A DNA stretch of 62,643 nt, counting the filler, from Myxococcota bacterium (GTDB taxonomy: Bacteria; Myxococcota_C; UBA6777): assembly GCA_023150835.1 (NCBI GenBank). It is 3 parts of 3 records of this genome, joined end to end, with 100 filler letters (N's around TTAATTAATTAA, not from the genome) between each part and the next. Parts side by side here need not be neighbours in the genome. Positions count along the whole stretch, not along the records: positions 17,359 to 46,107 come from JAKLKB010000144.1; 2 more parts are not named here. The stretch is one strand, 5' to 3'. Positions 16,777 to 28,030 of the stretch are shown one piece after another. A program made the position numbers and the translations under genes. Below the pieces are notes generated by a model. The model did no database searches. It was not told the DNA's origin and saw only the letters and a list, made by a program, of their open reading frames with translations. Each line of letters starts with the position of its first letter. Positions within the stretch are counted from its first letter, which is position 1.

Positions 16777-17085
16777 GTGGAACCACCACACGAATGGCTC
16801 GAACAATGCGTCGAGATCCGCTGCCCCAAAGGACTCCACATGCGCCCCGCAAGCGCCATCGCCAAAATCGCCCGCAGCTTCAACGCCGAGATCTTTTTGT
16901 GCAAAGCTGGCCTCGAAGCCTCCGCCACCAGCGTCATCAAACTGCTCCAACTCGAAGCCTCCGCTGGCACACTCCTCTCTCTGCGCGCTCGCGGCCCCGA
17001 CGCTCTCTCCGCTCTCCACGCCATCTGCGCTCAACTCCAACTCGTCGACTCACACCCCAAACTCTCCCCACCCTCCGAGTCTTAA
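16777..17085 (+). CDS. HPr-family phosphocarrier protein
   Basis: GLHMRPAS (His15 motif) and SATSVIKLLQL (Ser46 region); GTG start after AGGAG. Confidence 0.88.
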   Translation: MEPPHEWLEQCVEIRCPKGLHMRPASAIAKIARSFNAEIFLCKAGLEASATSVIKLLQLEASAGTLLSLRARGPDALSALHAICAQLQLVDSHPKLSPPSES

Positions 17086-17128
17086 CCCCCTCCAACTCTC
17101 TTGAAACGCTTCGCCCACCGTTCGCCTC

Positions 17129-17258
17129 CGCCCACAAATCCCAACAACCTCCGCTCCTCGTTCTCTTCGCCTTCGCCCACAAATCCCAACAACCTCCGCT
17201 CCTCGTTCTCTTCGCCTTCGCCCACAAATCCCAACAACCTCCGCTCCTCGTTCTCTTC
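17129..17258. repeat. 45-bp tandem repeat (~3 copies) running into contig end
   Basis: cgcccacaaatcccaacaacctccgctcctcgttctcttcgcctt at 17129, 17174, 17219. Confidence 0.9.
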
Positions 17259-17358
17259 NNNNNNNNNNNNNNNNNNNNNNNNNNNNNNNNNNNNNNNNNN
17301 NNTTAATTAATTAANNNNNNNNNNNNNNNNNNNNNNNNNNNNNNNNNNNNNNNNNNNN
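17259..17358. other. artificial contig linker
   Basis: 44 N + TTAATTAATTAA (stop in all frames) + 44 N. Confidence 0.97.
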
Positions 17359-17390
17359 CAACAGATATCGCTGCTTTAGACACCCTCTTA

Positions 17391-17451
17391 TACGAGATCC
17401 GCTCGTTGTGTGATCGTAAAAATGTAGGGGCAGCCCCCTGTGGCTGCCCAA
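17391..17451 (+). repeat. family 1 repeat, 5' half
   Basis: tacgagatccgc...gtaggggcagccccctgtggctgccc. Confidence 0.8.
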
Positions 17452-17583
17452 GAAGTGAGGGGTCAGAACATCGCGGATCCAACCACCTTCTCTCCAGAGC
17501 AAACCTTTTTCGCAAACACCCTCTGATATCTCAGGGTTCCCCTTTTCAACTGCGTAAGTCGTATATGCAGTGGCCAAAAAAAG

Positions 17584-17703
17584 CCGTGTTCGCGAGACTT
17601 CAAGCGAGAGGGTCGCCGATTTGAAAAACAGTGATCGTTTCGCCTATATGGGGTCAAGGGGCCTTCGGTCCCTTGTGGGGCGTGGGGTGAAACCCCACCA
17701 AAC
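17584..17703 (+). repeat. dispersed repeat family 2 copy
   Basis: CCGTGTTCG...TCAAGCGA...TTGAAAAA...GGGGTCAAGG...GGGCGTGGGG..AAACCCC; matches 35137-35257 and the reverse complement of 42244-42365. Confidence 0.8.
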
Positions 17704-17822
17704 ACAAGCCAACAGGATTTGTGGTTCGGTGGTCTGTGGGAGTGTGGGGATGGTTGTAGCGTGCGGAGGTGGTTTTGTGATAGAGCGGTAGCGTACTATC
17801 GCGACGGAAGTGGAGGGCCTCG

Positions 17823-19625
17823 ATGCGAACGATGTGTTTTCGTGGATGGTTGTGGTGTTTTGGGATCGTGGGTGGGTGTTGGAGTGTGGAGGTTGCTGCG
17901 AGGCCAGCGGCATCGCAAAAGGGAAAAGAGGAGGCTCGCTCGACGGTGGGAGAAGTGTGGTTGAAGAGCGAGCGAAAAGTGCGTTGGATACGGCCTCCCG
18001 GTTTGTTTTGGCCGTATCAAGATCTGTTGAGGCGTGCGGTGTATCAGGGTTGGATCGCGCAGACCACGCGGCCAAGCGATGAAGACGAAAAAGGATCGCA
18101 AGAGATCGCCAAAAAAGCCGAACAGATGGGGATTGCGCAGAATGGGATCTCCTTGCGTGATGCGCTAAAAAGGCTGATCAGCGACAACCCAGCGTTGAAG
18201 CGCGAACGCTTGCTTTTGCGGATCGCGGCAGCGGATCTGATGCGTGCGCGGGGGGCGTTTGGTTTTGATCTGAACTTGGATCTGACGGCTTCGCACATTA
18301 CGGAGCCACAGGGGATTCAAAACTTTTTGACGGGCGGGGCGTCGATCAACGTCGATGCGGTGCGCGAAGGTTGGAGTGTCGATGGAAATATCCGCCTCGA
18401 CAAGCGCTTTGAATCAGGGACGACGTTATCGGCGATCTTTGCGAACCGTTGGGGGAATGTGAATCGCTTGTTTTACGATCTTGAAGGGAAGCTGTTGGCA
18501 GATCGAAGTGTGCAGATCGAGACGGTGAACACTTCGTTTACGCTGCAAGCAACACAAGCGTTTTTGCGGGGGGCTTTTTTGGAGCCGAACCTTGTGCCGA
18601 TCTGGCAATCGGAAGAGGGCTTACGCAAAGTCCACGATCAGCTTGCGGGGGTCGTCACGCAGTATGCGGCGCAGACGATTCGGGCGTATTGGGATCTGGT
18701 GTTTGCGCGGGCCAACCGTCAGATCCAACAAGGTGCGTTGGATCTGGCGGAAGAGCAGTTGCGTACGACGCTTGCGCTGATCCAAGGGGGCAAAAAGTCG
18801 CCGTTGGAGCGTTATGAGGCCGAACAAGCGGTGGCGCAGCGCAGAGGGAGTCTTTTGCAAGCGGAAAACACGGTGGACGATGCGATGACATCGGTGCGTA
18901 CGTTGCTTGGGATGGAGAATGGAGCGGCTCCTGAACCTTCTGAACCCCCTGCGCAAGCGGCGGATGTACCGGATCTTCCGACATTGCTTAAACAAGTGGA
19001 GCGTTCGAGTATTGAGCTAATGGTGGCGCATCGCGATGCTCGGATCGCAAAGTTAGCGCTGATCGCCTCGAAGAATGCGACACTTCCGCAGTTGGACGGC
19101 AATATCGGTTTTACTTTTCGCGGTTTGGGCAACACGGTACAAGGGGCTGCAACGAACCTGCAACCGTTCCCTCGGGCCTACAGTACGTTGTTTGATCCAT
19201 ACACACACAACTTCCAAGTGGGTGTGGTGCTGCGGATCCCGCTCGATAACCGCCAAGCAGCGGGCCTATACGAGCGCCAACAAGTCGAGTCGCAACGTGC
19301 CGAGATGCAGCTCACGGTGATCCGCCAGCAGCTTCGTTTGGATCTGCAAAGGCTCCATTCGATCGCGTTGCGGACGCGCCAACGCATCCCGATCGCCCGT
19401 GTTTCGTTGATCTTGGCGCAAAAGAAGCTTGAGGCCGAGCAGCTACGCTACAAATTAGGCCAAAGCACGCTGTTTACGCTGCTTCAATACCAACAAGATC
19501 TTGCGACGGCGCAGCTCGAAGAAGTGCGCGCACGGGTGGACTTGCAAAAAGCCGCCATCGCGATCTACGAGCGCGCAGGTCTGTTGCTTGAGCGCTACGG
19601 TATCGCGCAAAAGAAAGCCGACTGA
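17823..19625 (+). CDS. TolC family outer membrane efflux protein
   Basis: Signal peptide; AYWDLVFA, LPQLD, LRIPLDNRQA, EQLRYKLGQST patterns of the OEP repeats. Confidence 0.88.
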   Translation: MRTMCFRGWLWCFGIVGGCWSVEVAARPAASQKGKEEARSTVGEVWLKSERKVRWIRPPGLFWPYQDLLRRAVYQGWIAQTTRPSDEDEKGSQEIAKKAEQMGIAQNGISLRDALKRLISDNPALKRERLLLRIAAADLMRARGAFGFDLNLDLTASHITEPQGIQNFLTGGASINVDAVREGWSVDGNIRLDKRFESGTTLSAIFANRWGNVNRLFYDLEGKLLADRSVQIETVNTSFTLQATQAFLRGAFLEPNLVPIWQSEEGLRKVHDQLAGVVTQYAAQTIRAYWDLVFARANRQIQQGALDLAEEQLRTTLALIQGGKKSPLERYEAEQAVAQRRGSLLQAENTVDDAMTSVRTLLGMENGAAPEPSEPPAQAADVPDLPTLLKQVERSSIELMVAHRDARIAKLALIASKNATLPQLDGNIGFTFRGLGNTVQGAATNLQPFPRAYSTLFDPYTHNFQVGVVLRIPLDNRQAAGLYERQQVESQRAEMQLTVIRQQLRLDLQRLHSIALRTRQRIPIARVSLILAQKKLEAEQLRYKLGQSTLFTLLQYQQDLATAQLEEVRARVDLQKAAIAIYERAGLLLERYGIAQKKAD

Positions 19626-19641
19626 GGAAGGTGTGGCTGTT

Positions 19642-19698
19642 GTTTGGTGCGGGGTGTCACCCCACGCCAAACAAGGGAACTGCGTCGCCTTGACCCCG
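19642..19698 (-). repeat. family 2 repeat, partial (terminal hairpins)
   Basis: Reverse complement cggggtcaagg...ccttg...gcgtggggtgacacccc. Confidence 0.65.
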
Positions 19699-19952
19699 TT
19701 TTGGCGGGGCGAACAGAGGTTTCCACACAGATCATGCGATATGTCGGGTGGTTCGGAGAGCTATGTCGGGAGGTCGGAGAGATAGGCGTTTGTGTATCTT
19801 CTTACGAAATTTTGTGCGGAAAGTCTTTGTGTCGTAAGAAATAGTGTGGACACAAGAGTCTCGAGATGTTAAAACAAAATCGTTCGATCCGTTTGGCAAT
19901 GCCTCCAACCCGATAAGTCGGGGACTACATCGTAAACAAAGGAGATCTGGTC

Positions 19953-20444
19953 ATGCCTTTGCCGTTAATTCCTCTCATCATTGGCGGCGTTTCTTTGATC
20001 GCTGGGGCGATCGGAGCCAAAAAGGGCTACGACGGTGTCGTAGACATGAACGAAGCGAACAAGATCGCAGAAGAAGCGAAAACTAGGTTGGAGCGCCATC
20101 AGGTCGGGTTGGAAGTGGAAAGAACCCGAACACAAAAAGCAGCGGAAGAATACGGAAAACAGTTGCTTTTGATGAAAAAAGAGACCCTTCAATCTTTTTT
20201 AGATTTTCTCCAATCCATCGAGCGAAACGGTGAGCAAGAAGCCATGCTGCGCCACTTGTCGGATATCGGTATCCAAAAGACGGAGATCCAAGAGTACAAA
20301 ATCGGCGTCAAAGATGCCGTTCACCTCTTGGGCGGTGCGGCAGCTGCCGTGGCTGGCGGTGCGGCGGCAGACGTTTGGAGATACCGCCCACAAGAAACGA
20401 CCACAAGAAATGGCGAGGGACCTGATGAGTGTTGCAGTTCTTGA
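19953..20444 (+). pseudogene. probably truncated coiled-coil / glycine-zipper membrane protein
   Basis: AGGAG RBS, MPLPLIPLIIGG TM start, coiled coil, then the Gly/Ala zipper (GGAAAAVAGGAAA) breaks into unrelated sequence overlapping the next gene. Confidence 0.45.
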
Positions 20445-20901
20445 CATCCACACATTGCGCGAACTCGCGCATCCTCCGCTCTTATCCAACGTCGATCCAC
20501 TTGGCTTCGAGCAGCGTCGAAATAGGATTGAAGCTGCGACGGAAGTGATCCGCGAATACTGGAACGAGCTTCCTCTGCCGATTAAGGACGAAGTGGTTCG
20601 GTACGTGCGTTTGCTTGTGGATTCGCCAAGCCTTTCTTTTTGGGAAAGCCTCATGCATCGGGTCTCTGTGGTCGGCGGTTTCCTCGCGGTGGCTTACCAT
20701 TTTTTCGTGGACAAGAAATCGATGCACTCGTACGTTGGATATGTTCAATCCGTCGATCGACTGATTCAGACGGTGCTTGATGCGGTGGAGAGAGAAAACG
20801 CTTTCTATCAGCAAGCCATCCAGATTTCAAAAGAAGAAGAAGGCAAGGAATTGAAAGGAACAACGGCGGGGGATTTTCGTGACTTCCTTGGAAGGTTATA
20901 G
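20425..20901 (+). CDS. hypothetical protein, putative antitoxin
   Basis: Overlaps downstream toxin-like ORF; C-terminal GTTAGDFRDFLGRL amphipathic tail resembling type II antitoxins; start 20410 or 20425. Confidence 0.55.
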   Translation: MSVAVLDIHTLRELAHPPLLSNVDPLGFEQRRNRIEAATEVIREYWNELPLPIKDEVVRYVRLLVDSPSLSFWESLMHRVSVVGGFLAVAYHFFVDKKSMHSYVGYVQSVDRLIQTVLDAVERENAFYQQAIQISKEEEGKELKGTTAGDFRDFLGRL

Positions 20902-21322
20902 GTTTCTGATCACGTCTTGCTTTGAGCGGAGTTATCGGGACGTGTGCAAAAAGCACTACAAGAAAGACACCAGAGGGCGAGGTGAACTAGACGAGCTTGT
21001 GGGCGTTTTTCTTTCGTCGATAAAACAAGACTATAAACATCCTCAATCTTCTCTTGAGCCTTGGCCGAATAAGACGCACCAAGAGCCTTGGGAACTTTGG
21101 AAGCTACGCTTCACGATGCCTCGACAGTCGGGTAGTTCTAGTTATGGTCGGCTGATCTATTGCGTCGATCCTGTCGATCGGTGGGTAAAGCTGATGTTGC
21201 TGTACACCCACGCTGAGTATGAGGGGCGACCAAGCGATCAACAAATTCGAGAGGCTTTTCACGAAGAAGTTGAGCCGCCACATCACGCGGAGCCGCCACC
21301 CAGCACAGAACCATCTTCCTAG
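20888..21322 (+). CDS. putative RelE/ParE-fold toxin
   Basis: N-terminal FERSYRDV helix, WKLRF...GRLIYCVD...VKLMLLYTH pattern of RelE-like ribonucleases; TTG start overlapping upstream gene. Confidence 0.55.
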   Translation: MEGYRFLITSCFERSYRDVCKKHYKKDTRGRGELDELVGVFLSSIKQDYKHPQSSLEPWPNKTHQEPWELWKLRFTMPRQSGSSSYGRLIYCVDPVDRWVKLMLLYTHAEYEGRPSDQQIREAFHEEVEPPHHAEPPPSTEPSS

Positions 21323-21392
21323 AAAGATTTGCCTTGATTAGCGCGATTAGACATGGATGGTTTGATCGGGGTGTCGGCGGGAAGTACAGGGT

Positions 21393-23558
21393 TTATTCGG
21401 GGAGGATGTTGGGGTAGAGGGCAAATTTTTCGCGAGCGGCCCCGGAGGGTCGGGCTTCGGGATGTTTTTGGAGGAAGGCTTGGTAGGGCTGGTTGAGGGC
21501 GTGGGGGAGATCGCCGTAGACCATCTTGACGAAGCCAACGATGCCTTGGACGTGGTTGCGGGTGTCGGCGTCGAGTTGGCCTGTGGGGATCTTGGCGGCA
21601 GCGCGTCGGAGGACGCTGCGGAAGGTTTTGATCTTTTCACGGGGGATGCGGATCTGTTGGTCGTCGATGCGAAGTCCGCATATCTCGAGGTCTTGGCCTT
21701 TGGCGACGGAAGCGGAGTGGACTTTGTGGGGATGCCAGCGGAATCCAGCGTTTTCGATGATGGATTGGACTTGGAGGAGGAGGAGTTCGGGGAGGTCGTC
21801 TTGGGTGGAGAGGGTGAGATCGTCGGCGTATCGGGTGTATACGATGGGTGTGTGGTATTCTTGGAGGGAGGCGAACAGGCGTTTGTCGAGGGTGAGGCAA
21901 GAGAGATTGAGGAGATAGCCCGAAGTGGGGGCACCTTGGGGGAGTTCGTTTTTGTGGGTGGTGAGATCGGCGATCAGGGCGACGACATCATCGCGCAGTT
22001 CACGAGGACAACGCAGTCCGAATTTTTTGAGAAGAGCGCCAAGACCGACCTGCATGACGTGTTTGACGCGGGCGGTGCTGACGGACGGGAAAGCATCTTT
22101 GAGGTCGAGATTGAGCAAGTGTTTTGCGCCGAGGTGGGCTTGTGCGTTGGTGACGATGGATCGGCCCGGGACGAAGCCATGCGAGGCGACAGAGACAGGC
22201 ATGTGATAGAGGAGTCGGTCAAGGATGCGCTCTTGGACGGCTTTGAGTTCGCTTTTGGGCGAAGATATCTGGCGGGTTTTGCCGTTGCCTTTGGGGATCT
22301 CCCATTCGTCGTAGCCAAGTCCGCTTTGGGCGAGTTGTTGGGCCAGTCCGACGTAGGAGGGGGAAAGGTCGAGCCATTGGGCAAGAAGGGAGACGGCGTC
22401 TTGGGCTTCGACAGGTCGGGGAGAGGTGGCGGCGATCGCAGGTGCGGTGATCTCGGTTTCATCGGGGAGATCGCGTGTTTTTCGATAGCGTTGGTAAGCG
22501 TCTTTGATCGAGGGGGGGAGTTGTTCGCCGTAGACCTGTTTGAAGAAGGAGATGATCCCGCGAATCTTGCTGCGTCGTTTGATCTCGGTGCGGGGGTCGG
22601 CGATATCGAGGGAGCGTTCGAGAGCTTCTTGGCAGCGTTCGATCAAGAGGGGGTCGGCTTCGAGTCGGCCAAAGCGGAGAGTGACGCCGCAGATGACGGC
22701 GTTTTCGTGTTGTGTGTCGACGAGTCGGGTTTTTCCGCGATGGAGGCGGAAGTCATTTTTGATCACCGCGAGTTCGAGTTCTTGTTGGACGTTTTGGGGG
22801 ATCGAGGTGGGGGTTGAGATCGTGATATCGTCGATGTATCGGGAATAACGAAGGCCGAGTTCTTTGTGTTGATCGATGATCTTGAAGATCTTGCGATCCA
22901 TCTCAAGGCAGGCGAGGTTGAGGAGGTAGCCTGAAGTGGGTGCGCCTTGGGGGAGAGCGTAGACGGTGTGTGCGCCTTGGGGGGTGGCTTCGGTTTGGCG
23001 CATGGTGGTGAGAGCGGCGAGGAAGTGGAGGGCTTCGTCGAGGGGAGAAGGGCCATCATGGAGGGTTTTGGCGTGGGGGAGGGGGCCAAACTGTCGAAAA
23101 AGTGGTTTGACGTAGCGTCGAAAGATCGTGTGGACGCGAGGGAGCCGGACCGAAGGGAAGGCGTTGCGCAAGTCCATCAAAAGGAGTTGTTGTGCATCGG
23201 GGAGGTGGTGCATGGCGTTGGAAACAACGGAGCGACCCGGGACAGCGCCATGTGCGGCGTTGGAGACGGGGATCGGGTAAAGCAAGCGATCGAGGATGCG
23301 GCGTTGGATCTCTTTGAGAGCGCCGTAAGGCTCGTAGATATCGCGCCATTCGAGGCGACCGGGTTTGGGGATGCGGTAGTGAAAATAAGCATCATCGGAG
23401 CGCATGGCTTGGTGGACTTCGGCAAGCAAGGCGGCATCGACATCGAGCCATTGAGCGAGCAGTTGATGTGCCGCTTCAGAATAGCTTGCGAGCGGCTGAT
23501 ACGCGCGGATGGTGAGGTGAGCAGTATTCCGTTTGCGTTTAGGCGTGTCTTGAACCAT
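21393..23558 (-). CDS. protein with two tandem retron-like reverse transcriptase domains
   Basis: Domain 1: IPK..R, NAMHH, DLRNAFPS, LPQGAPTS, YSRYIDD (22827-22838), ICG. Domain 2: IPK..R, NAQAH, DLKDAFPS, LPQGAPTS, YTRYADD (21819-21830), ICG. AAGGAG RBS before ATG. Confidence 0.93.
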   Translation of the reverse strand: MVQDTPKRKRNTAHLTIRAYQPLASYSEAAHQLLAQWLDVDAALLAEVHQAMRSDDAYFHYRIPKPGRLEWRDIYEPYGALKEIQRRILDRLLYPIPVSNAAHGAVPGRSVVSNAMHHLPDAQQLLLMDLRNAFPSVRLPRVHTIFRRYVKPLFRQFGPLPHAKTLHDGPSPLDEALHFLAALTTMRQTEATPQGAHTVYALPQGAPTSGYLLNLACLEMDRKIFKIIDQHKELGLRYSRYIDDITISTPTSIPQNVQQELELAVIKNDFRLHRGKTRLVDTQHENAVICGVTLRFGRLEADPLLIERCQEALERSLDIADPRTEIKRRSKIRGIISFFKQVYGEQLPPSIKDAYQRYRKTRDLPDETEITAPAIAATSPRPVEAQDAVSLLAQWLDLSPSYVGLAQQLAQSGLGYDEWEIPKGNGKTRQISSPKSELKAVQERILDRLLYHMPVSVASHGFVPGRSIVTNAQAHLGAKHLLNLDLKDAFPSVSTARVKHVMQVGLGALLKKFGLRCPRELRDDVVALIADLTTHKNELPQGAPTSGYLLNLSCLTLDKRLFASLQEYHTPIVYTRYADDLTLSTQDDLPELLLLQVQSIIENAGFRWHPHKVHSASVAKGQDLEICGLRIDDQQIRIPREKIKTFRSVLRRAAAKIPTGQLDADTRNHVQGIVGFVKMVYGDLPHALNQPYQAFLQKHPEARPSGAAREKFALYPNILPE

Positions 23559-24011
23559 CTAACCCTCTCCTTACAAGGCTCACTAGGACGACGGAGGTTG
23601 CGGGGGCAAACCTCGCGGTGTTTACGAGAAAAGACCGTGAATAGGAAACTGTTTGGAACGAAGAGCAATATGCTCACAGGACGCAAAGAAAGGAAAGGAG
23701 GCGGCTTGGGCTTGGGGGGATATCCTCTCTCGGGGCGCAGGGGGGAGAGAGGAAGCAGAGAGGAAGGGTGGCTTGCGGCCTCGTGTCTTTCCAGTTATCG
23801 TGCGTTGCGAAGTGGGGGGCTGTGGAGCAGAAGTGCGGTGGTGCGGGCATCTGCGAGGGAAGCCCCAAAAAACACCCAAGCCCGAGGGGATGGATGTTTT
23901 GGAGTTGGTATGGTGTTTGGTGGAACCCAAAAAGCGCTCCATGCGGTGCGTTTGTCGAACAGAGCACACAAGGCAACAAGATCGCAAAGAGAGAGGTCCT
24001 TGTGGGGACGT
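23559..24011 (-). ncRNA. candidate RT-associated structured RNA (msr-msd-like position)
   Basis: Intergenic region directly upstream of the RT gene with several hairpins; no clear a1/a2 inverted repeat identified by eye. Confidence 0.3.
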
Positions 24012-26165
24012 GTGGAGTGGTGTCTTGTGCGGGTTGTGTTGTGTTGGGTAGCCCACGGGTGGTGGCTTCCTTTTTCGGTGAATGGAGAAACATCCGCGAG
24101 GGGTTCCAAGCAAAGAAACAAAGAGACCACAAAAGCGGATCGAGGTCAACAAGGCAACACGCAAAAGTCAAGTGCTGTGGGGATTGTGGAGGGTGAGGAT
24201 CCAAGCGAATCGCTGTCTTTTGCGCAATTGGCCGCGTTATGGAGTCAGGGGCATCTTTACGGGCAACGTATGACGCAACTTGTCGCACGTTCGTTTGAGG
24301 AGTGGCTAGGGGACTTGGGAGGCGTCTCGTGGGGCGGCAGCGATCCTGCGGGGGGTTCGTTGTGGTTGCGTGGAGGGGGAGGAGGGCGGGTGGCGATTCG
24401 ATTGGATGGGTTGCCGTTGTTGCGGGGTGTGGAAGAGTTGGTGGGAGAGCGACCCTTGGCGGGTTTGGCGCTGTGGGATATCAAAGAAGTGACGTTGTTG
24501 CGAGGGCCGACTTCGGTGTATTTGGGAGATCATGGATTGTTGGGAGGGCTGTTGTTGCGAACGGAGGGGGATGGTTGGGAAGAAGGCGGTGGTTGGCGGG
24601 GTTGGCGAGGGGGAGGTGTGGCAGAAGGGCATTATACGAGTGGTGCGCAGGGAGGGAGCGGATTTGCGAAGGCATGGGTGGGGATGCCGATCTTTGGTGT
24701 GCGGCTCAGCGGAGGATACGAAGGGATGCAAGCGATGCGCACAGGGGGGGGTGAAGTGGTGCCTGAGAGCGGTTATCAACGAGGGCATGTGTCTGCAAAG
24801 CTGCGGTTTTCCTCTCCTGCACGCCTTTGGGAAAATCGTTTGTTTTACACGGTGGGTTGGTTGCGGGATGCTGTGCGTGTGGATCAGTTGCCGCCATACG
24901 GCGATCGGACGGTGTTGGGGCGGCAACAACATCTTGGGTATGTGGACAGTCGTCTGGTCTTGCCTTTTTTGAAAACGCGGCTGCGTGGGATGTTTGGTGT
25001 GCAATTTTTGGAAGAAGATCGTTTGGTGGAACGCTTCGCCTCGGTGGGCGGGGGAGTTGTGGGGTGGCGAGAAGAAAGAACGCCGCACTTGCGATGGGAC
25101 GGATTGATCCACGCAGAGAGCCGCCCTTGGTCGGTGTTGCTGTTGCGTTATGGCGCAGAATTTTCGACGGAATCGCTAGAGCATCGGACGATTCGAGAAA
25201 CAGGACAAAGTAGCGGAGGTCGTTCTTTTCTTGGGCAGGCGAGGCAAAATGATTTGTCGTTTTTTTTGTCAAGCCGTGTGTCGTTGCCTGCGGATAGATT
25301 GCGCATCGACATGGAGGGCGGGATAAGAGTTCACAATCATTGGCGCGATATCGATGCTCTTGTATCGGGAAATTCTACGCGCTGGGCCAAAACTTTGTAC
25401 GCGGCTTATTTGGGGATCAAGCTGCATGATGCGCGGGTGTGGTCGGTGCGTTTGTTTTTCTCTGACGGGTTTCGGACGCCAAACATGGCGGAGATGGGGC
25501 GGTTGGGAGTGTTTGGACAAGCTTTTTTTATTCCCAATACAGAGTTAAACGAAGAACGAACGCGTGCCTTAGAAGGGACGTTTACACTTCGGATGACAGG
25601 GCGTGTACAGACTTCTGTTCGCTTCTTTTTGCAAGCACTTTCAGGATGGTTGGCTTTGCAGCCTGCGTCGTATGGCGGTCAAGGCGCTGTGGGCGGCTTG
25701 CCTGTCTATCAATACCAAGCCACCGAAGAAGTCGTGATGTTGGGGGCGGAAGCTACGCTGGCTTGGCAGATCATCGGTGGATGGAGTTTGCGTGCAGAGA
25801 TCGGATGGTTGGATGAGATGGGCAACGGTAGCGCACGTCCCCCCACGCCGATCTGGCCGCCTGCATCGAACTGGACAGGTCGATTGCTCACGCGCTACAA
25901 CTGGGAGGGCTGGGGTGGGATCGAGATCATGGCGCAAGGAGCGATGGGGCGAGAAGCGCGCTATCTTCCTCCGTGGCAGGTGGCGCGGATGCCTTCGGCC
26001 TCGTGGTGGACGATGCACATCCGCGCTGATCTGCGCTTGATGTCGTGGATGCAGTTGTTGTTTTCTGTGCGAAACCTTCTCGATCAAGCCTATATCCCGT
26101 TCCCTTCGCGCTATCCTGCAATGGGTCGCGATATCCATCTGGCTTTGCGTCTTTCTTTTTCCTGA
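24012..26165 (+). CDS. TonB-dependent receptor
   Basis: Plug-like VAIRLDG, EVTLLRGPTSVYLG; FRTPN, VRNLLDQAY, C-terminal GRDIHLALRLSFS; start at GTG 24012 inferred from signal-peptide-like stretch. Confidence 0.8.
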   Translation: MEWCLVRVVLCWVAHGWWLPFSVNGETSARGSKQRNKETTKADRGQQGNTQKSSAVGIVEGEDPSESLSFAQLAALWSQGHLYGQRMTQLVARSFEEWLGDLGGVSWGGSDPAGGSLWLRGGGGGRVAIRLDGLPLLRGVEELVGERPLAGLALWDIKEVTLLRGPTSVYLGDHGLLGGLLLRTEGDGWEEGGGWRGWRGGGVAEGHYTSGAQGGSGFAKAWVGMPIFGVRLSGGYEGMQAMRTGGGEVVPESGYQRGHVSAKLRFSSPARLWENRLFYTVGWLRDAVRVDQLPPYGDRTVLGRQQHLGYVDSRLVLPFLKTRLRGMFGVQFLEEDRLVERFASVGGGVVGWREERTPHLRWDGLIHAESRPWSVLLLRYGAEFSTESLEHRTIRETGQSSGGRSFLGQARQNDLSFFLSSRVSLPADRLRIDMEGGIRVHNHWRDIDALVSGNSTRWAKTLYAAYLGIKLHDARVWSVRLFFSDGFRTPNMAEMGRLGVFGQAFFIPNTELNEERTRALEGTFTLRMTGRVQTSVRFFLQALSGWLALQPASYGGQGAVGGLPVYQYQATEEVVMLGAEATLAWQIIGGWSLRAEIGWLDEMGNGSARPPTPIWPPASNWTGRLLTRYNWEGWGGIEIMAQGAMGREARYLPPWQVARMPSASWWTMHIRADLRLMSWMQLLFSVRNLLDQAYIPFPSRYPAMGRDIHLALRLSFS

Positions 26166-26440
26166 GGGGATCTGCGCGGTTCGATCCTCGGAGGGGGTGT
26201 GCTGTTTTGGGGCAGAGGCGGAATCGCTTGGAGGGCGAGACTGTTTCGTTGCGTTGACACCTACGTCTCAGAGTGGGAAATTTTGATCTTGAAATCGGAA
26301 GGCGACTTGCTTTATGATGCGAGGGCTTGTGTTTTCTTCCTTATGCAAAGTGGAACACCACCCACGAGGCCGACCATGCAAACGAGGCGCTCTTTTGTTT
26401 TTTGTTTCTTCCGCCTCGCCTTCACCAACAGGAGGGGCGC

Positions 26441-28030
26441 ATGAGATCGCACACCCACTCGACGCCGGCCTTGCTCTTGATCGTCCAACACTCGCTCTTG
26501 GCCCACGACCTCTCGGCCTTTGCACACACCCACCATCTCCCCCTGATCTACGCCGCCAACTTTGAAGAAGGGCGAGCGGTTGCTTCCCAAACATCCCTGC
26601 GCTGCATCGTGCTGGATGTGATGCGCGAAGACGAGAGCGGCTTTTTGTTTGCCGAATGGGTACGACAACAGCCGATGTTGGATGCGGTAGATCTGATCTT
26701 TGTCAGCGACACCCATCCCGCAGCCCATTTTCGGGACTCTGCCTTGCCGCGTTATCGGGCGATGGCGTATTTCGATCTCCCCGTACCCCGCGAAGCGTTG
26801 TTCCAAGTTCTCTTGCTTCAGCTACAACGCAATACGCATTCTTTTGCGCATCCTTCGGCCTCCACAAGAGCTCCTTCTCGTTCGCAATGGATGACGCCAG
26901 CCCCTTCTGCTTCGCCCTCTTCATCCTCTCTTGTTGCGCGCCCACAGCCCGAACGCTCCGCATCAGCTTCATGGGGAGTCCCCTCCGCACCGTGGACTCC
27001 CCCTGTTTCTTCCGAACATTCCGACGCTTCCGCGTCTCTCCACGCGGCTCCTTCCGATGCTGCGGCGTCATGGCCTCACGCATCCTCTTCTTGGTCTGGC
27101 GAAGGAGCCGCCGATCTCAACCCAACACAGTTTTTGACGGACCCCGAAGATTGGGCGCAATCGATCTTTTCTCGACCTTCTTTACCCCAACACGTCACAC
27201 CAGCAGCTTTTCACAACGCAGATCCCGAACACGATCAACTTGCAGACACCGGCAATTACGGACAAGCGCCCGACTTTGAAGAACTCTCCGCAGAGTCTAC
27301 CGCTGAAGAGATCCCGCGCATCCCCCGCGATCTTCAAAACCCCTTCTCTTCTTCGCCCTCCCGAGACGAACAAGCCCATCAATTTGAAGATGAGCAGACG
27401 CACGCCCCGCAGGGAACGCACGCCCCGCAGGGAACGCACGCTCCGCACGAATCGCAGGAACCGCAAAGAGCGAACACTCCGCAAAGAGCGAACGCTCCGC
27501 ACAAATCGCAGGAACCGCAAAGAGCGAACACTTCGCAAAGAGCGAACACTGCGCATGGACCGCATGGACCGCAGAGATCGAATGCTCCGCAGGGATCACA
27601 GGATCTGTATGATCCTGAGGAAGACAGCCTCGAAGAGCTCAACGAGGAAGCAGAAGCAGCATTCGCGGAGGGGTTGAGAGGGTTGGCGCAGCGCGAGTAT
27701 TCTCAGGCATTACCGTTGTTTGCGCGTGCTTTTCAGATGCAAAATTCGCCACGTTACGAATGTTATTTTGCGTGGACGCTTTTTTTGTCACAGCCGCAAA
27801 ATCAACTGCAAGCCAAGATCGCTTTGATGCACTTAGAAAAGTCGCGAAAGGCCGAGCCTTATTACGAGAAAACGTATCTGTTTATGGGCCATATTTTTCA
27901 GCAGATGCGTCGCTTCGACGAGGCGTTGCAGATCTATCGCGAGGCGCTGGCTTTTTCGCCCGCATTTTTGGAGGTTTATCGGGAGTTACGGCTGTTGGAG
28001 CTTCAGATGACAAGAGCATTCAAGACTTGA
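26441..28030 (+). CDS. receiver-like domain / low-complexity linker / TPR protein
   Basis: IVLDVMREDESGF receiver-like motif, LIFVS; C-terminal TPRs; GGAGG RBS. Confidence 0.7.
   Translation: MRSHTHSTPALLLIVQHSLLAHDLSAFAHTHHLPLIYAANFEEGRAVASQTSLRCIVLDVMREDESGFLFAEWVRQQPMLDAVDLIFVSDTHPAAHFRDSALPRYRAMAYFDLPVPREALFQVLLLQLQRNTHSFAHPSASTRAPSRSQWMTPAPSASPSSSSLVARPQPERSASASWGVPSAPWTPPVSSEHSDASASLHAAPSDAAASWPHASSSWSGEGAADLNPTQFLTDPEDWAQSIFSRPSLPQHVTPAAFHNADPEHDQLADTGNYGQAPDFEELSAESTAEEIPRIPRDLQNPFSSSPSRDEQAHQFEDEQTHAPQGTHAPQGTHAPHESQEPQRANTPQRANAPHKSQEPQRANTSQRANTAHGPHGPQRSNAPQGSQDLYDPEEDSLEELNEEAEAAFAEGLRGLAQREYSQALPLFARAFQMQNSPRYECYFAWTLFLSQPQNQLQAKIALMHLEKSRKAEPYYEKTYLFMGHIFQQMRRFDEALQIYREALAFSPAFLEVYRELRLLELQMTRAFKT
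27398..27552 (+). repeat. in-frame 18-bp-based repeats (THAPQG, QRANTP)
   Basis: Direct reading of linker. Confidence 0.8.

Follow-up and report, generated by a model that had tools for sequence, protein, structure and literature searches.

Two retron-clade reverse transcriptase modules fused head to tail in a single Myxococcota polypeptide

Retron reverse transcriptases (RTs) are viewed as single polymerases dependent on a non-coding RNA (ncRNA) plus an effector. A gene of a Myxococcota bacterium (UBA6777; assembly GCA_023150835.1, record JAKLKB010000144.1) raises the question of what one polypeptide with two such polymerases might do. The gene lies in a 62,643-nt stretch of DNA, filler included, that was analysed as a whole and is called the window here. 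A first-pass annotation had described a 721-residue ORF with two tandem, apparently catalytic, retron-like RT domains joined by an Ala/Pro linker; it knew of no described system with two fused RT domains, and proposed HMM scans, structure prediction, phylogenetic placement of both halves and a search for homologues with the same double architecture. In line with its view of novelty, we found no description of a fused two-RT retron in the literature, the supplements of Mestre 2020 aside. We ask whether the fusion is genuine, whether both modules are likely to be active, and how such a protein could work.

Architecture and authenticity of the fused gene

Pfam RVT_1 was found twice in the dual RT (P0001), at residues 63-281 and 421-617, and the two halves align over 345 residues with 35% identity (E 1e-57), a likeness far above what chance would give. 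The AlphaFold model of the chain (pLDDT 88, pTM 0.80) comprises two full fingers-palm-thumb units. Its pLDDT is mostly >85 in the N-type module, with thumb helices at 303-361, and drops below 50 at residues 371-384, where the linker is disordered; the linker is also weakly conserved across the alignment of the 15 full-length homologue clusters. The closest fold matches in the PDB were the retron RTs Eco2, Ec86, Eco7 and Ec78, and the top PADLOC matches were retron RT models. The HMM scan and the structure prediction confirmed that one polypeptide consists of two complete retron-clade RT modules head to tail, with the Ala/Pro linker between them, as first described (Table 1).

The homologue search returned the same double architecture in 15 full-length clusters, the window's own included, of 695-723 aa, 50-83% identity and different sources, all in a continuous frame. 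In five genome assemblies the fused gene forms one open frame free of stops. An independent 7260-nt DNA contig, taken from a separate study, covers 20369-24600; it carries 6 differences and is free of indels, the linker included. At least 94% of the sampled words were present in each of 16 runs, which stem from 5 or more studies. Although two separate, overlapping RT genes do exist in sister lineages, these data, with five assemblies and the contig crossing the junction, refute misassembly and make it highly improbable that adjacent RT genes were merged here by any artefact, be it assembly, a frameshift or a read-through call. In P0016 and P0265 an N-terminal extension of about 330-410 aa is not counted as a new domain: it probably reflects an over-long gene call, as starting at an internal Met would leave about 725 aa.

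Table 1 Features of the dual-RT locus, in window coordinates.
Feature	Coordinates	Strand	Basis and remarks
Dual-RT gene P0001	21393..23558	-	721 aa, stop codon included; ORF and translation
N-type RT module, residues 15-370	22449..23516	-	Fingers, palm, three-helix thumb; Pfam RVT_1
C-type RT module, residues 386-706	21441..22403	-	Pfam RVT_1, retron RT models
Ala/Pro-rich linker, residues 371-385, TAPAIAATSPRPVEA	22404..22448	-	Poor conservation, low pLDDT; sequence confirmed
Motif A catalytic Asp, N-type module, D129	23172..23174	-	Invariant 15/15
Motif C, N-type module, YIDD (Y241, D243, D244)	22827..22838	-	Translation; invariant 15/15
Motif A catalytic Asp, C-type module, D485	22104..22106	-	Alignment and translation
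Motif C, C-type module, YADD (Y577, D579, D580)	21819..21830	-	Invariant 15/15
Conserved leader, ~100 nt, close upstream of ATG	23559..23660	-	AAACAGTTT block, GAGGTT...AACCTC hairpin, Shine-Dalgarno AAGGAGAGG
Remaining divergent intergenic region	23661..24011	.	Up to likely TonB-receptor start (23910 or 24012, estimated)

Conservation of both active sites and history of the two halves

The motifs that had been listed as shared, LLAQWLD, IPK, ILDRLLY, HG.VPGRS.V.NAxxH, D..AFPSV, LPQGAPTSGYLLNL, RY.DD, ICG and G..F...VYG, all occur in both halves. Three catalytic Asp per half, as claimed, and the YxDD Tyr (D129, Y241, D243 and D244; D485, Y577, D579 and D580) are invariant in 15/15 homologues, and YADD of the C-type module is invariant in 41/41 rows of the wider alignment A3. 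The reported distance of 336 residues between catalytic motifs holds for YIDD and YADD but not for the motif-A Asp, which are spaced 356 residues apart because of a longer N-half insert between motifs A and B'. Retron RTs carry two named motifs, NAxxH in region X and VTG in region Y. In the dual RT, NAxxH (N114..H118, N471..H475) is invariant in both halves of the 15 homologues, and the region Y position reads (V/I)CG(V/L) rather than VTG, with CG invariant in each half across all 15 and ICG in both halves of P0001. In the N-type module, the fingers residues IPK..R and LPQGAPTSGY are likewise invariant (15/15), down to 50% identity. The dN/dS values of the N-half and C-half were 0.088 and 0.081 between the window and L001, and 0.086 and 0.129 between the window and L002; the two halves are under equal purifying selection. 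Both modules are apparently catalytically competent.

In the phylogeny, the N-halves form one clade (support 97/100) and the C-halves another (100/100), and the internal topologies of the two clades match. The stem branch is longer for the N-type than for the C-type (0.52 vs 0.37). The two types are old paralogues and do not stem from a recent duplication, and the trees point to their co-divergence since before the radiation of the family. Sister lineages encode split pairs of overlapping genes, RT1 (YVDD) and RT2 (YADD), at L008, L009, L026 and L028/L029, with the same gene order, N-type then C-type. YVDD is kept in 4/4 split RT1 genes; at L025 an RT2 was read, overlapped by a short upstream ORF that was not counted among the RT1 genes. 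RT1 clusters with the N-halves at 92/92 support, a grouping to which a long-branch warning is attached, and AU tests (N+C as one clade, p 0.042; RT1+RT2 as one clade, p 0.15) do not firmly reject independent duplications.

Some relatives are linked to kinases. In L028/L029 (one lineage, near-identical contigs) the split pair has a Pkinase gene upstream, and the singleton P0121 is a kinase-RT-RT fusion protein that is colinear with P0001 (35% identity) and retains both motif sets. The Ser/Thr kinases of L028/L029 and P0121 share 27%, a generic kinase similarity only.

The conservation of the N-type site bears on whether the protein has one working polymerase or two. In HIV-1 RT, the p51 subunit is catalytically silent and comes from the same gene as p66 via proteolysis; the dual RT resembles p66/p51 in having two RT-fold units as one enzyme. 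By this likeness, it could be an asymmetric pseudo-dimer in which one module, probably the C-type, polymerises and the other serves as a scaffold, nucleic-acid clamp or sensor. The greater divergence of the N-type module, seen in its stem branch and in its weaker, type-ambiguous HMM matches, would suit such a role, and a degenerate copy does occur in P0141, an independent double RT whose first copy is without motif A and YxDD. P0141, however, illustrates how a dead RT copy looks, and the N-type module contrasts with it: its catalytic Asp, YxDD Tyr, IPK..R, NAxxH and LPQGAPTSGY do not vary among the homologues, its catalytic motifs persist in P0121 and, as YVDD, in every RT1, and its dN/dS is just as low as the C-half's. 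Unlike p66/p51, the dual RT has catalytic residues in both units, which are old paralogues and covalently joined. A silent N-type module is on balance unlikely. A complex prediction of the N-half with the C-half (residues 15-368 and 386-706) gave a score of 0.05 and was counted for neither side.

Genomic setting and relation to known retrons

The dual-RT gene is flanked by a TonB-receptor gene and a TolC-like (OEP, outer-membrane efflux) gene, and this synteny, seen in related Myxococcota MAGs, is kept in the window, L001, L002 and L003. At L004 the downstream TolC-like gene is kept, and upstream lie co-oriented genes with no TonB receptor. The genes separating the RT from the TolC-like gene vary among loci. 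In the window, the genes downstream converge on the RT and the TonB-receptor gene upstream diverges from it, which bears out the earlier remark that no co-oriented effector gene is adjacent. The fused and split loci yielded no conserved effector gene or fused effector domain and no SWIM protein, a Pfam scan of the immediate neighbours found no ARM/HEAT repeats, and three small ORFs at 19953-21322 had no Pfam, NCBIfam or PADLOC match. The gene is present in 5/5 genomes from the taxa of G001 (its order, class and phylum), a very small genome set. The RT and its L002 orthologue share 83% identity, where the flanking genes reach 78% and 60%; with the L003 orthologue it shares 60%, where they reach 38% and 29%. 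These comparisons show that the fused gene is vertically inherited at a fixed chromosomal site, with no conserved effector nearby.

The highest PADLOC score of each half went to RT_XIII, with a clear lead for the C-half (230.6 bits; next model 183.6); for the N-half, retron RT models lay at 137-140 bits with RT_XIII on top and no clear best type. Sequence and modelled fold place the dual RT in the retron clade, and it has the retron RT fold in common with type XIII. In Mestre et al. 2020 (PMC7736814), type XIII is RT clade 10 and tends to vertical inheritance, as the dual RT does. Within the same genomes (G003-G005), RTs that truly belong to type XIII reach 489-605 bits across model positions 6-428, whereas the dual RT scores 212-226 bits, covers positions 140-433 of 469 only and is without the N-terminal extension. 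Type XIII has a winged-helix/SWIM partner: G003:C95 has a SWIM match at a distance of 47 nt from its true RT_XIII, and none was found near the dual RT in 5/5 genomes, its neighbours being the TonB receptor and the outer-membrane efflux protein. The HEAT/ARM-repeat accessory protein of type XIII likewise had no counterpart among the immediate neighbours scanned with Pfam. Type XIII also has one RT module rather than two. The dual-RT family is thus near type XIII and does not qualify as a member.

Other retron families were compared as well. The NCBIfam model NF038233 (retron St85 family RT) was rejected: the halves stay at 127.2 and 189.8 bits, below its cut-off of 235, and the 312.6 bits of the whole protein come solely from the sum of two domains. 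RT-Toprim (I-C), RT-protease (XI), RT-TIR (XII) and RT-DUF3800 (VII-A1) retrons resemble the dual RT in joining an RT and a second module in one polypeptide, and their models strongly match its RT region. In these retrons a non-RT effector forms the second module, at the C-terminus, whereas in the dual RT the second module is also an RT and the diverged copy is N-terminal.

The closest relatives of the C-type module are uncharacterised single RTs of Planctomycetota (~400 aa; P0018-P0037; L006, L007, L021-L023, L030) with an N-terminal zinc ribbon. Their identity is 43-49% to the C-half and 33-37% to the N-half, and they sit in the same unresolved four-way tree split as the dual RT. The single RT lies upstream of a PNPase gene at 3/3 loci examined. 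These relatives have a conserved, structured upstream RNA (16 pairs, 6 with compensatory changes) to which the dual-RT loci have no match.

The region upstream of the dual RT was searched for such an RNA; 6 distinct lineages with the fused gene were at hand. About 350-450 nt of intergenic DNA precede the RT in the window and L002, and upstream gaps are short at the split loci L008, L009 and L026 (107-154 nt). The leader next to the gene is kept between the window and L002 despite near-saturated synonymous sites (dS about 1.1-1.2); it is not conserved in L003-L005, and is probably a promoter/5' UTR. An Rfam scan of 19500-24500 (E up to 5) gave only a chance lncRNA match, and the fold of 316 nt upstream had z = -1.0. 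Inverted repeats in six upstream regions came as short pairs whose positions are not homologous, as chance would allow, and a promoter/terminator scan found sites no more frequent than in shuffles. A covariance model, R1, built from the upstream RNA of five loci of the Planctomycetota relatives, matched only these training loci among 24 sources. With filters off it found nothing in the window (17000-28000; best score 8.8 bits) or at 7 loci, and on the whole genomes G001-G005 it gave only matches of 22-28 bits, far from the RT. Because no msr/msd-like RNA is detectable at the locus, the dual RT is a putative retron only, in the strict sense.

The protein might still belong to an ordinary type XIII-like retron whose msr/msd RNA and effector were missed, being too diverged, overlapping coding sequence or encoded elsewhere; each module would then make msDNA, or both would work together on one ncRNA in the manner of a homodimer. 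The RT_XIII matches, the structured RNA of the nearest single-RT relatives and the intergenic room in the window and L002 all lean this way. RNA-library contigs also cover the upstream region, those of two studies ending at 24249 and 24251, a weak hint only; positions 24276-24600 have no cover in all three RNA runs, which is not evidence by itself. Against this stand the confinement of R1 to its training loci, the short upstream gaps of the split loci, downstream gaps of 8 nt (L001), 47 nt (L003) and 2 nt (L025), the far higher scores of the true type XIII RTs, and the SWIM partner, which adjoins the latter and never the dual RT. We regard an overlooked ordinary retron as a doubtful explanation.

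Possible modes of action and their meaning

The account we favour, though with no more than even confidence, is that the dual RT fuses two retron-clade RTs, paralogous and both catalytically competent, that form an obligate pair and whose two sites work in succession. Both active sites would act successively on one substrate: the C-type module, canonical and retron-like, would make the first strand on an RNA template, in the way of retron RTs, and the faster-diverged N-type module would add a second polymerisation step, for example second-strand synthesis or extension. RNA-templated synthesis by the C-type module is an assumption, because an msr/msd-like RNA was not found. The DNA product could be the output itself, or a signal to a partner such as a Ser/Thr kinase, and the role could be anti-phage defence or a domesticated cellular function. 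We infer these two steps from analogy and from the conservation of both sites.

The analogy is with DRT3, which consists of Drt3a, Drt3b and an ncRNA, its two RTs reportedly making complementary strands (10.64898/2026.05.04.722794). Like the dual RT, DRT3 is based on two different RTs; those of DRT3 are both active and act together, a functional model of how two sites might give complementary DNA strands. The RTs of DRT3 belong to the UG3/UG8 classes and are separate genes, whereas those of the dual RT are fused retron-clade paralogues for which no ncRNA was found. The Drt3a model scored 40.7 bits on the whole protein and 27.4 on the N-half, against a cut-off of 200, and Drt3b was absent among the listed model matches. 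The dual RT is unrelated to DRT3 and possibly analogous to it; a similar mode of action would have arisen inside the retron clade.

A further possibility, which we hold only tentatively, is a lineage-wide domesticated, retron-derived two-polymerase enzyme that dispensed with a cis msr/msd RNA and a separate effector and took on the N-type RT as its partner. Cooperation of the sites would then give a double-stranded or otherwise two-step DNA product, and the Ser/Thr kinases of sister lineages could be a coupled output or sensor. Such an enzyme would be a retron-clade counterpart of DRT3, its gene fixed among the core genes of a deep Myxococcota branch.

The dual RT suggests an alternative design of RT systems, with two conserved, predicted-active sites per chain, inherited vertically and conserved on a par with its housekeeping neighbours, without a recognisable ncRNA or effector. 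If the sites cooperate, dual-RT DNA synthesis would have originated a second time, independently of DRT3, and a single compact gene could supply biotechnology with programmed DNA products. The forms make up a natural series, from a single RT with RNA through two genes and the fused gene to the kinase-fused protein, in which the question is directly testable. The fixed position and lineage-wide presence of the gene bear on the non-defence cellular roles that some retron-type RTs may have.

The dual-RT gene and its protein

P0001, the 721-aa dual-RT protein, matches RVT_1 (Pfam) twice, at residues 63-281 and 421-617, and its N-half (first RT module) and C-half (second) align with each other over 345 residues at 35% identity (E 1e-57), in agreement with the first-pass annotation of two RT domains in one chain. 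The motifs listed there were each found in both halves, the catalytic motifs YIDD and YADD are separated by 336 aa as reported, and an Ala/Pro linker joins the halves. The motif-A Asp residues are D129 (N-half) and D485 (C-half).

Coordinates of features at the dual-RT locus and at related loci
Feature	Position	Strand	Remark
Dual-RT ORF, P0001	21393-23558	-	721 aa
N-half motif C, YIDD	22827-22838	-	
C-half motif C, YADD	21819-21830	-	
Linker	22404-22448	-	residues 371-385; Ala/Pro-rich, weakly conserved, predicted disordered
1759-nt cassette	19634-21392		directly after RT stop codon
Cassette small ORFs	19953-20444; 20230-20901; 20879-21322	+	
Structured RNA, single-RT loci	L021 16-95; L022 129-210; L023 3488-3568; L030 7-87; L007 9523-9607		
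Ser/Thr kinase gene	L028 1147-3411; L029 1386-3650		upstream of split RT pair
Polynucleotide phosphorylase gene	L021 2043-4145; L022 2148-4319; L023 5560-7815		

A search of 5.8 billion proteins for the same double architecture, as the annotation had proposed, returned 14 further full-length clusters (695-723 aa, 97-100% query cover) from NCBI, ENA, JGI and Logan, 51-83% identical to P0001 by BLAST, the lowest being 50% in the MAFFT alignment. The gene is one open frame without stops in five species-level genome assemblies. In 16 runs, drawn from at least five activated-sludge or aquatic studies, ≥94% of the words sampled from positions 21300-24300 are present. A 7260-nt DNA contig, whose study is not the likely source, spans the gene from end to end with six substitutions and no indel. 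That the fusion is an artefact is ruled out by the further clusters, the five assemblies and this independent contig. RNA-library contigs from three studies also cover the ORF, which is not proof of transcription because such libraries can contain DNA.

Across an alignment of 15 full-length dual-RT sequences, the motif-A Asp, the Tyr and both Asp of YxDD, the IPK..R fingers residues, NAxxH, LPQG.PTSGY, the motif-D Lys, CG and the thumb motif G..F...Y.G are invariant in both halves. Values of dN/dS (NG86) were 0.088 for the N-half and 0.081 for the C-half between the window and L001, and 0.086 and 0.129 between the window and L002, both homologous fused loci; deeper comparisons were saturated. 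The AlphaFold2 model (41-row alignment; mean pLDDT 88, pTM 0.80) contains two full fingers-palm-thumb units, with low confidence only at the termini, the linker and one loop. Its best structural matches are the retron RTs Eco2 (E 1.6e-17), Ec86, Eco7 and Ec78, with TM up to 0.76 on the target, followed by DRT9, group II intron and DGR RTs. Judged from their sequences, both RT modules look catalytically competent, as first annotated.

Family placement and origin of the two halves

The top PADLOC matches to P0001 were all retron RT models, RT_XIII being best for both halves, with a clear margin for the C-half (230.6 bits vs the next 183.6) and a negligible one for the N-half (139.9, 137.0 and 136.5 bits). 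The dual RT scored 212-226 bits against RT_XIII over model positions 140-433; true type XIII RTs elsewhere in dual-RT genomes scored 489-605 bits over positions 6-428. A SWIM domain adjoins the true type XIII RT at G003:C95, whereas none lies near the dual RT in any of the five genomes holding the fused gene (G001-G005). Whole P0001 exceeded the 235-bit cut-off of retron_St85_RT (NCBIfam) at 312.6 bits, unlike either half alone (127.2 and 189.8), and the Drt3a model gave 27-41 bits against a cut-off of 200. P0001 thus belongs to the retron-clade RTs, close to type XIII but outside it, given its partial-length score and the lack of a nearby SWIM domain, and is not DRT3, a two-RT defence system with separate genes, given its Drt3a score. 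The G003 locus (G003:C95:64942-66475, 604.9 bits, adjoining a SWIM-domain gene) is a bona fide type XIII retron RT; G003, which also carries the dual RT, has three strong RT_XIII matches in all.

The nearest single-RT proteins, ~400-aa Planctomycetota RTs with an N-terminal zinc ribbon, are 43-49% identical to the C-half and 33-37% to the N-half (BLAST). In two trees, of 75 rows by a quick method and 45 rows by a careful one, N-halves form one clade (97/100) and C-halves another (100/100), with matching internal branching, and the fusion is therefore older than the radiation of the family. Sister lineages (L008, L009, L026 and L027-L029) carry two separate RT genes, overlapping and co-oriented, and at L025 the upstream RT gene is cut short or uncertain. 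In these split pairs the upstream RT1 carries YVDD and the downstream RT2 YADD. RT1 joins the N-halves with 92/92 support, subject to a long-branch warning, and the C-halves, RT2, the single RTs and the N-halves plus RT1 form a four-way split without resolved order. AU tests gave p 0.042 for N- and C-halves as one clade, a group named only after the tree was seen, 0.15 for RT1 with RT2, and 0.21 for C-halves with RT2. On these alignments, the favoured though unproven reading is one old duplication with a later fusion.

When 1.84 billion representatives were searched with a profile, only four proteins gave full-length double matches: the family representative, P0016 (with P0265 as full-length cluster mate), the partial P0017, and P0121. 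The last, a 1381-aa singleton, has a Ser/Thr kinase domain (residues 299-504) and, after it, an RT-RT region that aligns colinearly with P0001 (35% identity) and retains both motif sets. At L028 and L029, a gene for a 754-aa kinase lies directly upstream of the split pair with a terminator-like hairpin between; its similarity to the P0121 kinase is generic only. More distant matches included P0152, P0217 and P0258, in each of which a retron-type RT is fused to the domain 'HisKin-conflict' (Pfam PF22561). P0141 (853 aa) contains a retron-type RT that was duplicated within the chain in a recent, independent event. Its first copy is degenerate, with the motif-A Asp gone and RDVND in place of YxDD, and its second retains YVDD, in contrast to the P0001 family, where both motif sets are intact.

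Genomic setting and search for an RNA partner

In the window and L001-L003, the dual-RT gene is flanked by a TonB-dependent receptor gene (divergent) and a gene for a TolC-like outer-membrane efflux protein (convergent); L004 retains the downstream TolC-like gene, its upstream neighbours being co-oriented genes with no TonB receptor. Identity to L002 is 83% for the RT and 78% and 60% for the flanking genes, and to L003 60%, 38% and 29%, so that the dual RT is conserved at least as well as its neighbours. The fused gene occurs in 5/5 genomes searched as the order, class and phylum of G001 (each search comprising the same five) and, in a scan of one genome per species, in those five only. Such a distribution is that of a gene passed on vertically throughout its lineage, something unusual for defence systems.

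Between the RT stop codon and the TolC-like gene, L001 has 8 nt, L003 has 47 nt, L002 has a gene for a protoglobin sensor kinase and L004 has other ORFs. The window has a 1759-nt cassette there, which is absent from L001 and from a related strain, where an RNA-library contig runs from 19633 straight to 21393. The three small ORFs of the cassette had no match in Pfam, NCBIfam or PADLOC; the 147-aa one is similar to RelE/ParE toxins (protein atlas, score 0.95). Because base composition is strongly skewed by strand (GC skew up to ±0.4), long spurious frames arise antisense to real genes, such as a 1072-aa ORF across the RT gene (22947-26165, +), within which the real TonB receptor starts only at ~23910-24012. 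At 17100-17310, a peptide-level tandem repeat, in which AHKSQQPPLLVLF occurs three times in the same frame, enters the N stretch at ~17255-17300, probably an assembly gap within the repeat.

Upstream of the single-RT relatives we found a conserved structured RNA, starting ~270 to 470 nt before the RT in loci with a defined start, with covarying hairpins (16 pairs, six with compensatory changes), a TTAGAGGYAAGGTT block and, ~215-230 nt further downstream, a GCGCAGTC motif. A terminator-like hairpin precedes the RT in L021 and L022. This RNA is probably the msr/msd of the Planctomycetota single-RT clade. These RTs lie a few hundred bases upstream of a polynucleotide phosphorylase gene in all three loci with enough flank, which suggests a fixed chromosomal position for them too.

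A covariance model built from the 5' module of this RNA at five training loci recovered only those five (69-87 bits), with no match at fused or split dual-RT loci or elsewhere near them. Upstream of the ATG, conservation between the window and L002 is limited to ~100 nt; upstream gaps are 107-154 nt in the split loci L008, L009 and L026, and downstream gaps at dual-RT loci are as short as 2-47 nt. Neither the covariance model nor the upstream comparison revealed an msr/msd at dual-RT loci, which does not prove its absence. RNA-library contigs from two studies end at 24249 and 24251 where DNA contigs run on, which hints weakly at a transcript boundary, on either strand, ~690 nt ahead of the ATG.

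Possible action of the paired RTs

What fused and split loci share is two paralogous RTs, both with a complete active site, conserved as a pair whether in two genes or in one chain. The two modules may act in succession on one substrate, akin to DRT3, in which one RT is described as making poly(dTdG) off an RNA template and the other the complementary strand (10.64898/2026.05.04.722794). Less probably, one module could instead have a scaffold role, a reading that the active-site residues kept in both halves speak against. As a further less probable reading, the locus could be an ordinary retron with undetected partners, against which stand the covariance search and the short intergenic gaps.

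A full-text literature search on retrons with two, tandem, double, fused or dual RTs found none describing this architecture, in line with the original remark that no fused two-RT retron was known, though supplementary tables may list such proteins; passages of Mestre 2020, the 2026 SPIRE retron survey, the 2021 prokaryotic RT review and a 2026 RT census do not mention it. We rate the P0001 family as a variant among retron-clade RT systems, new in that its conserved core has two RTs.
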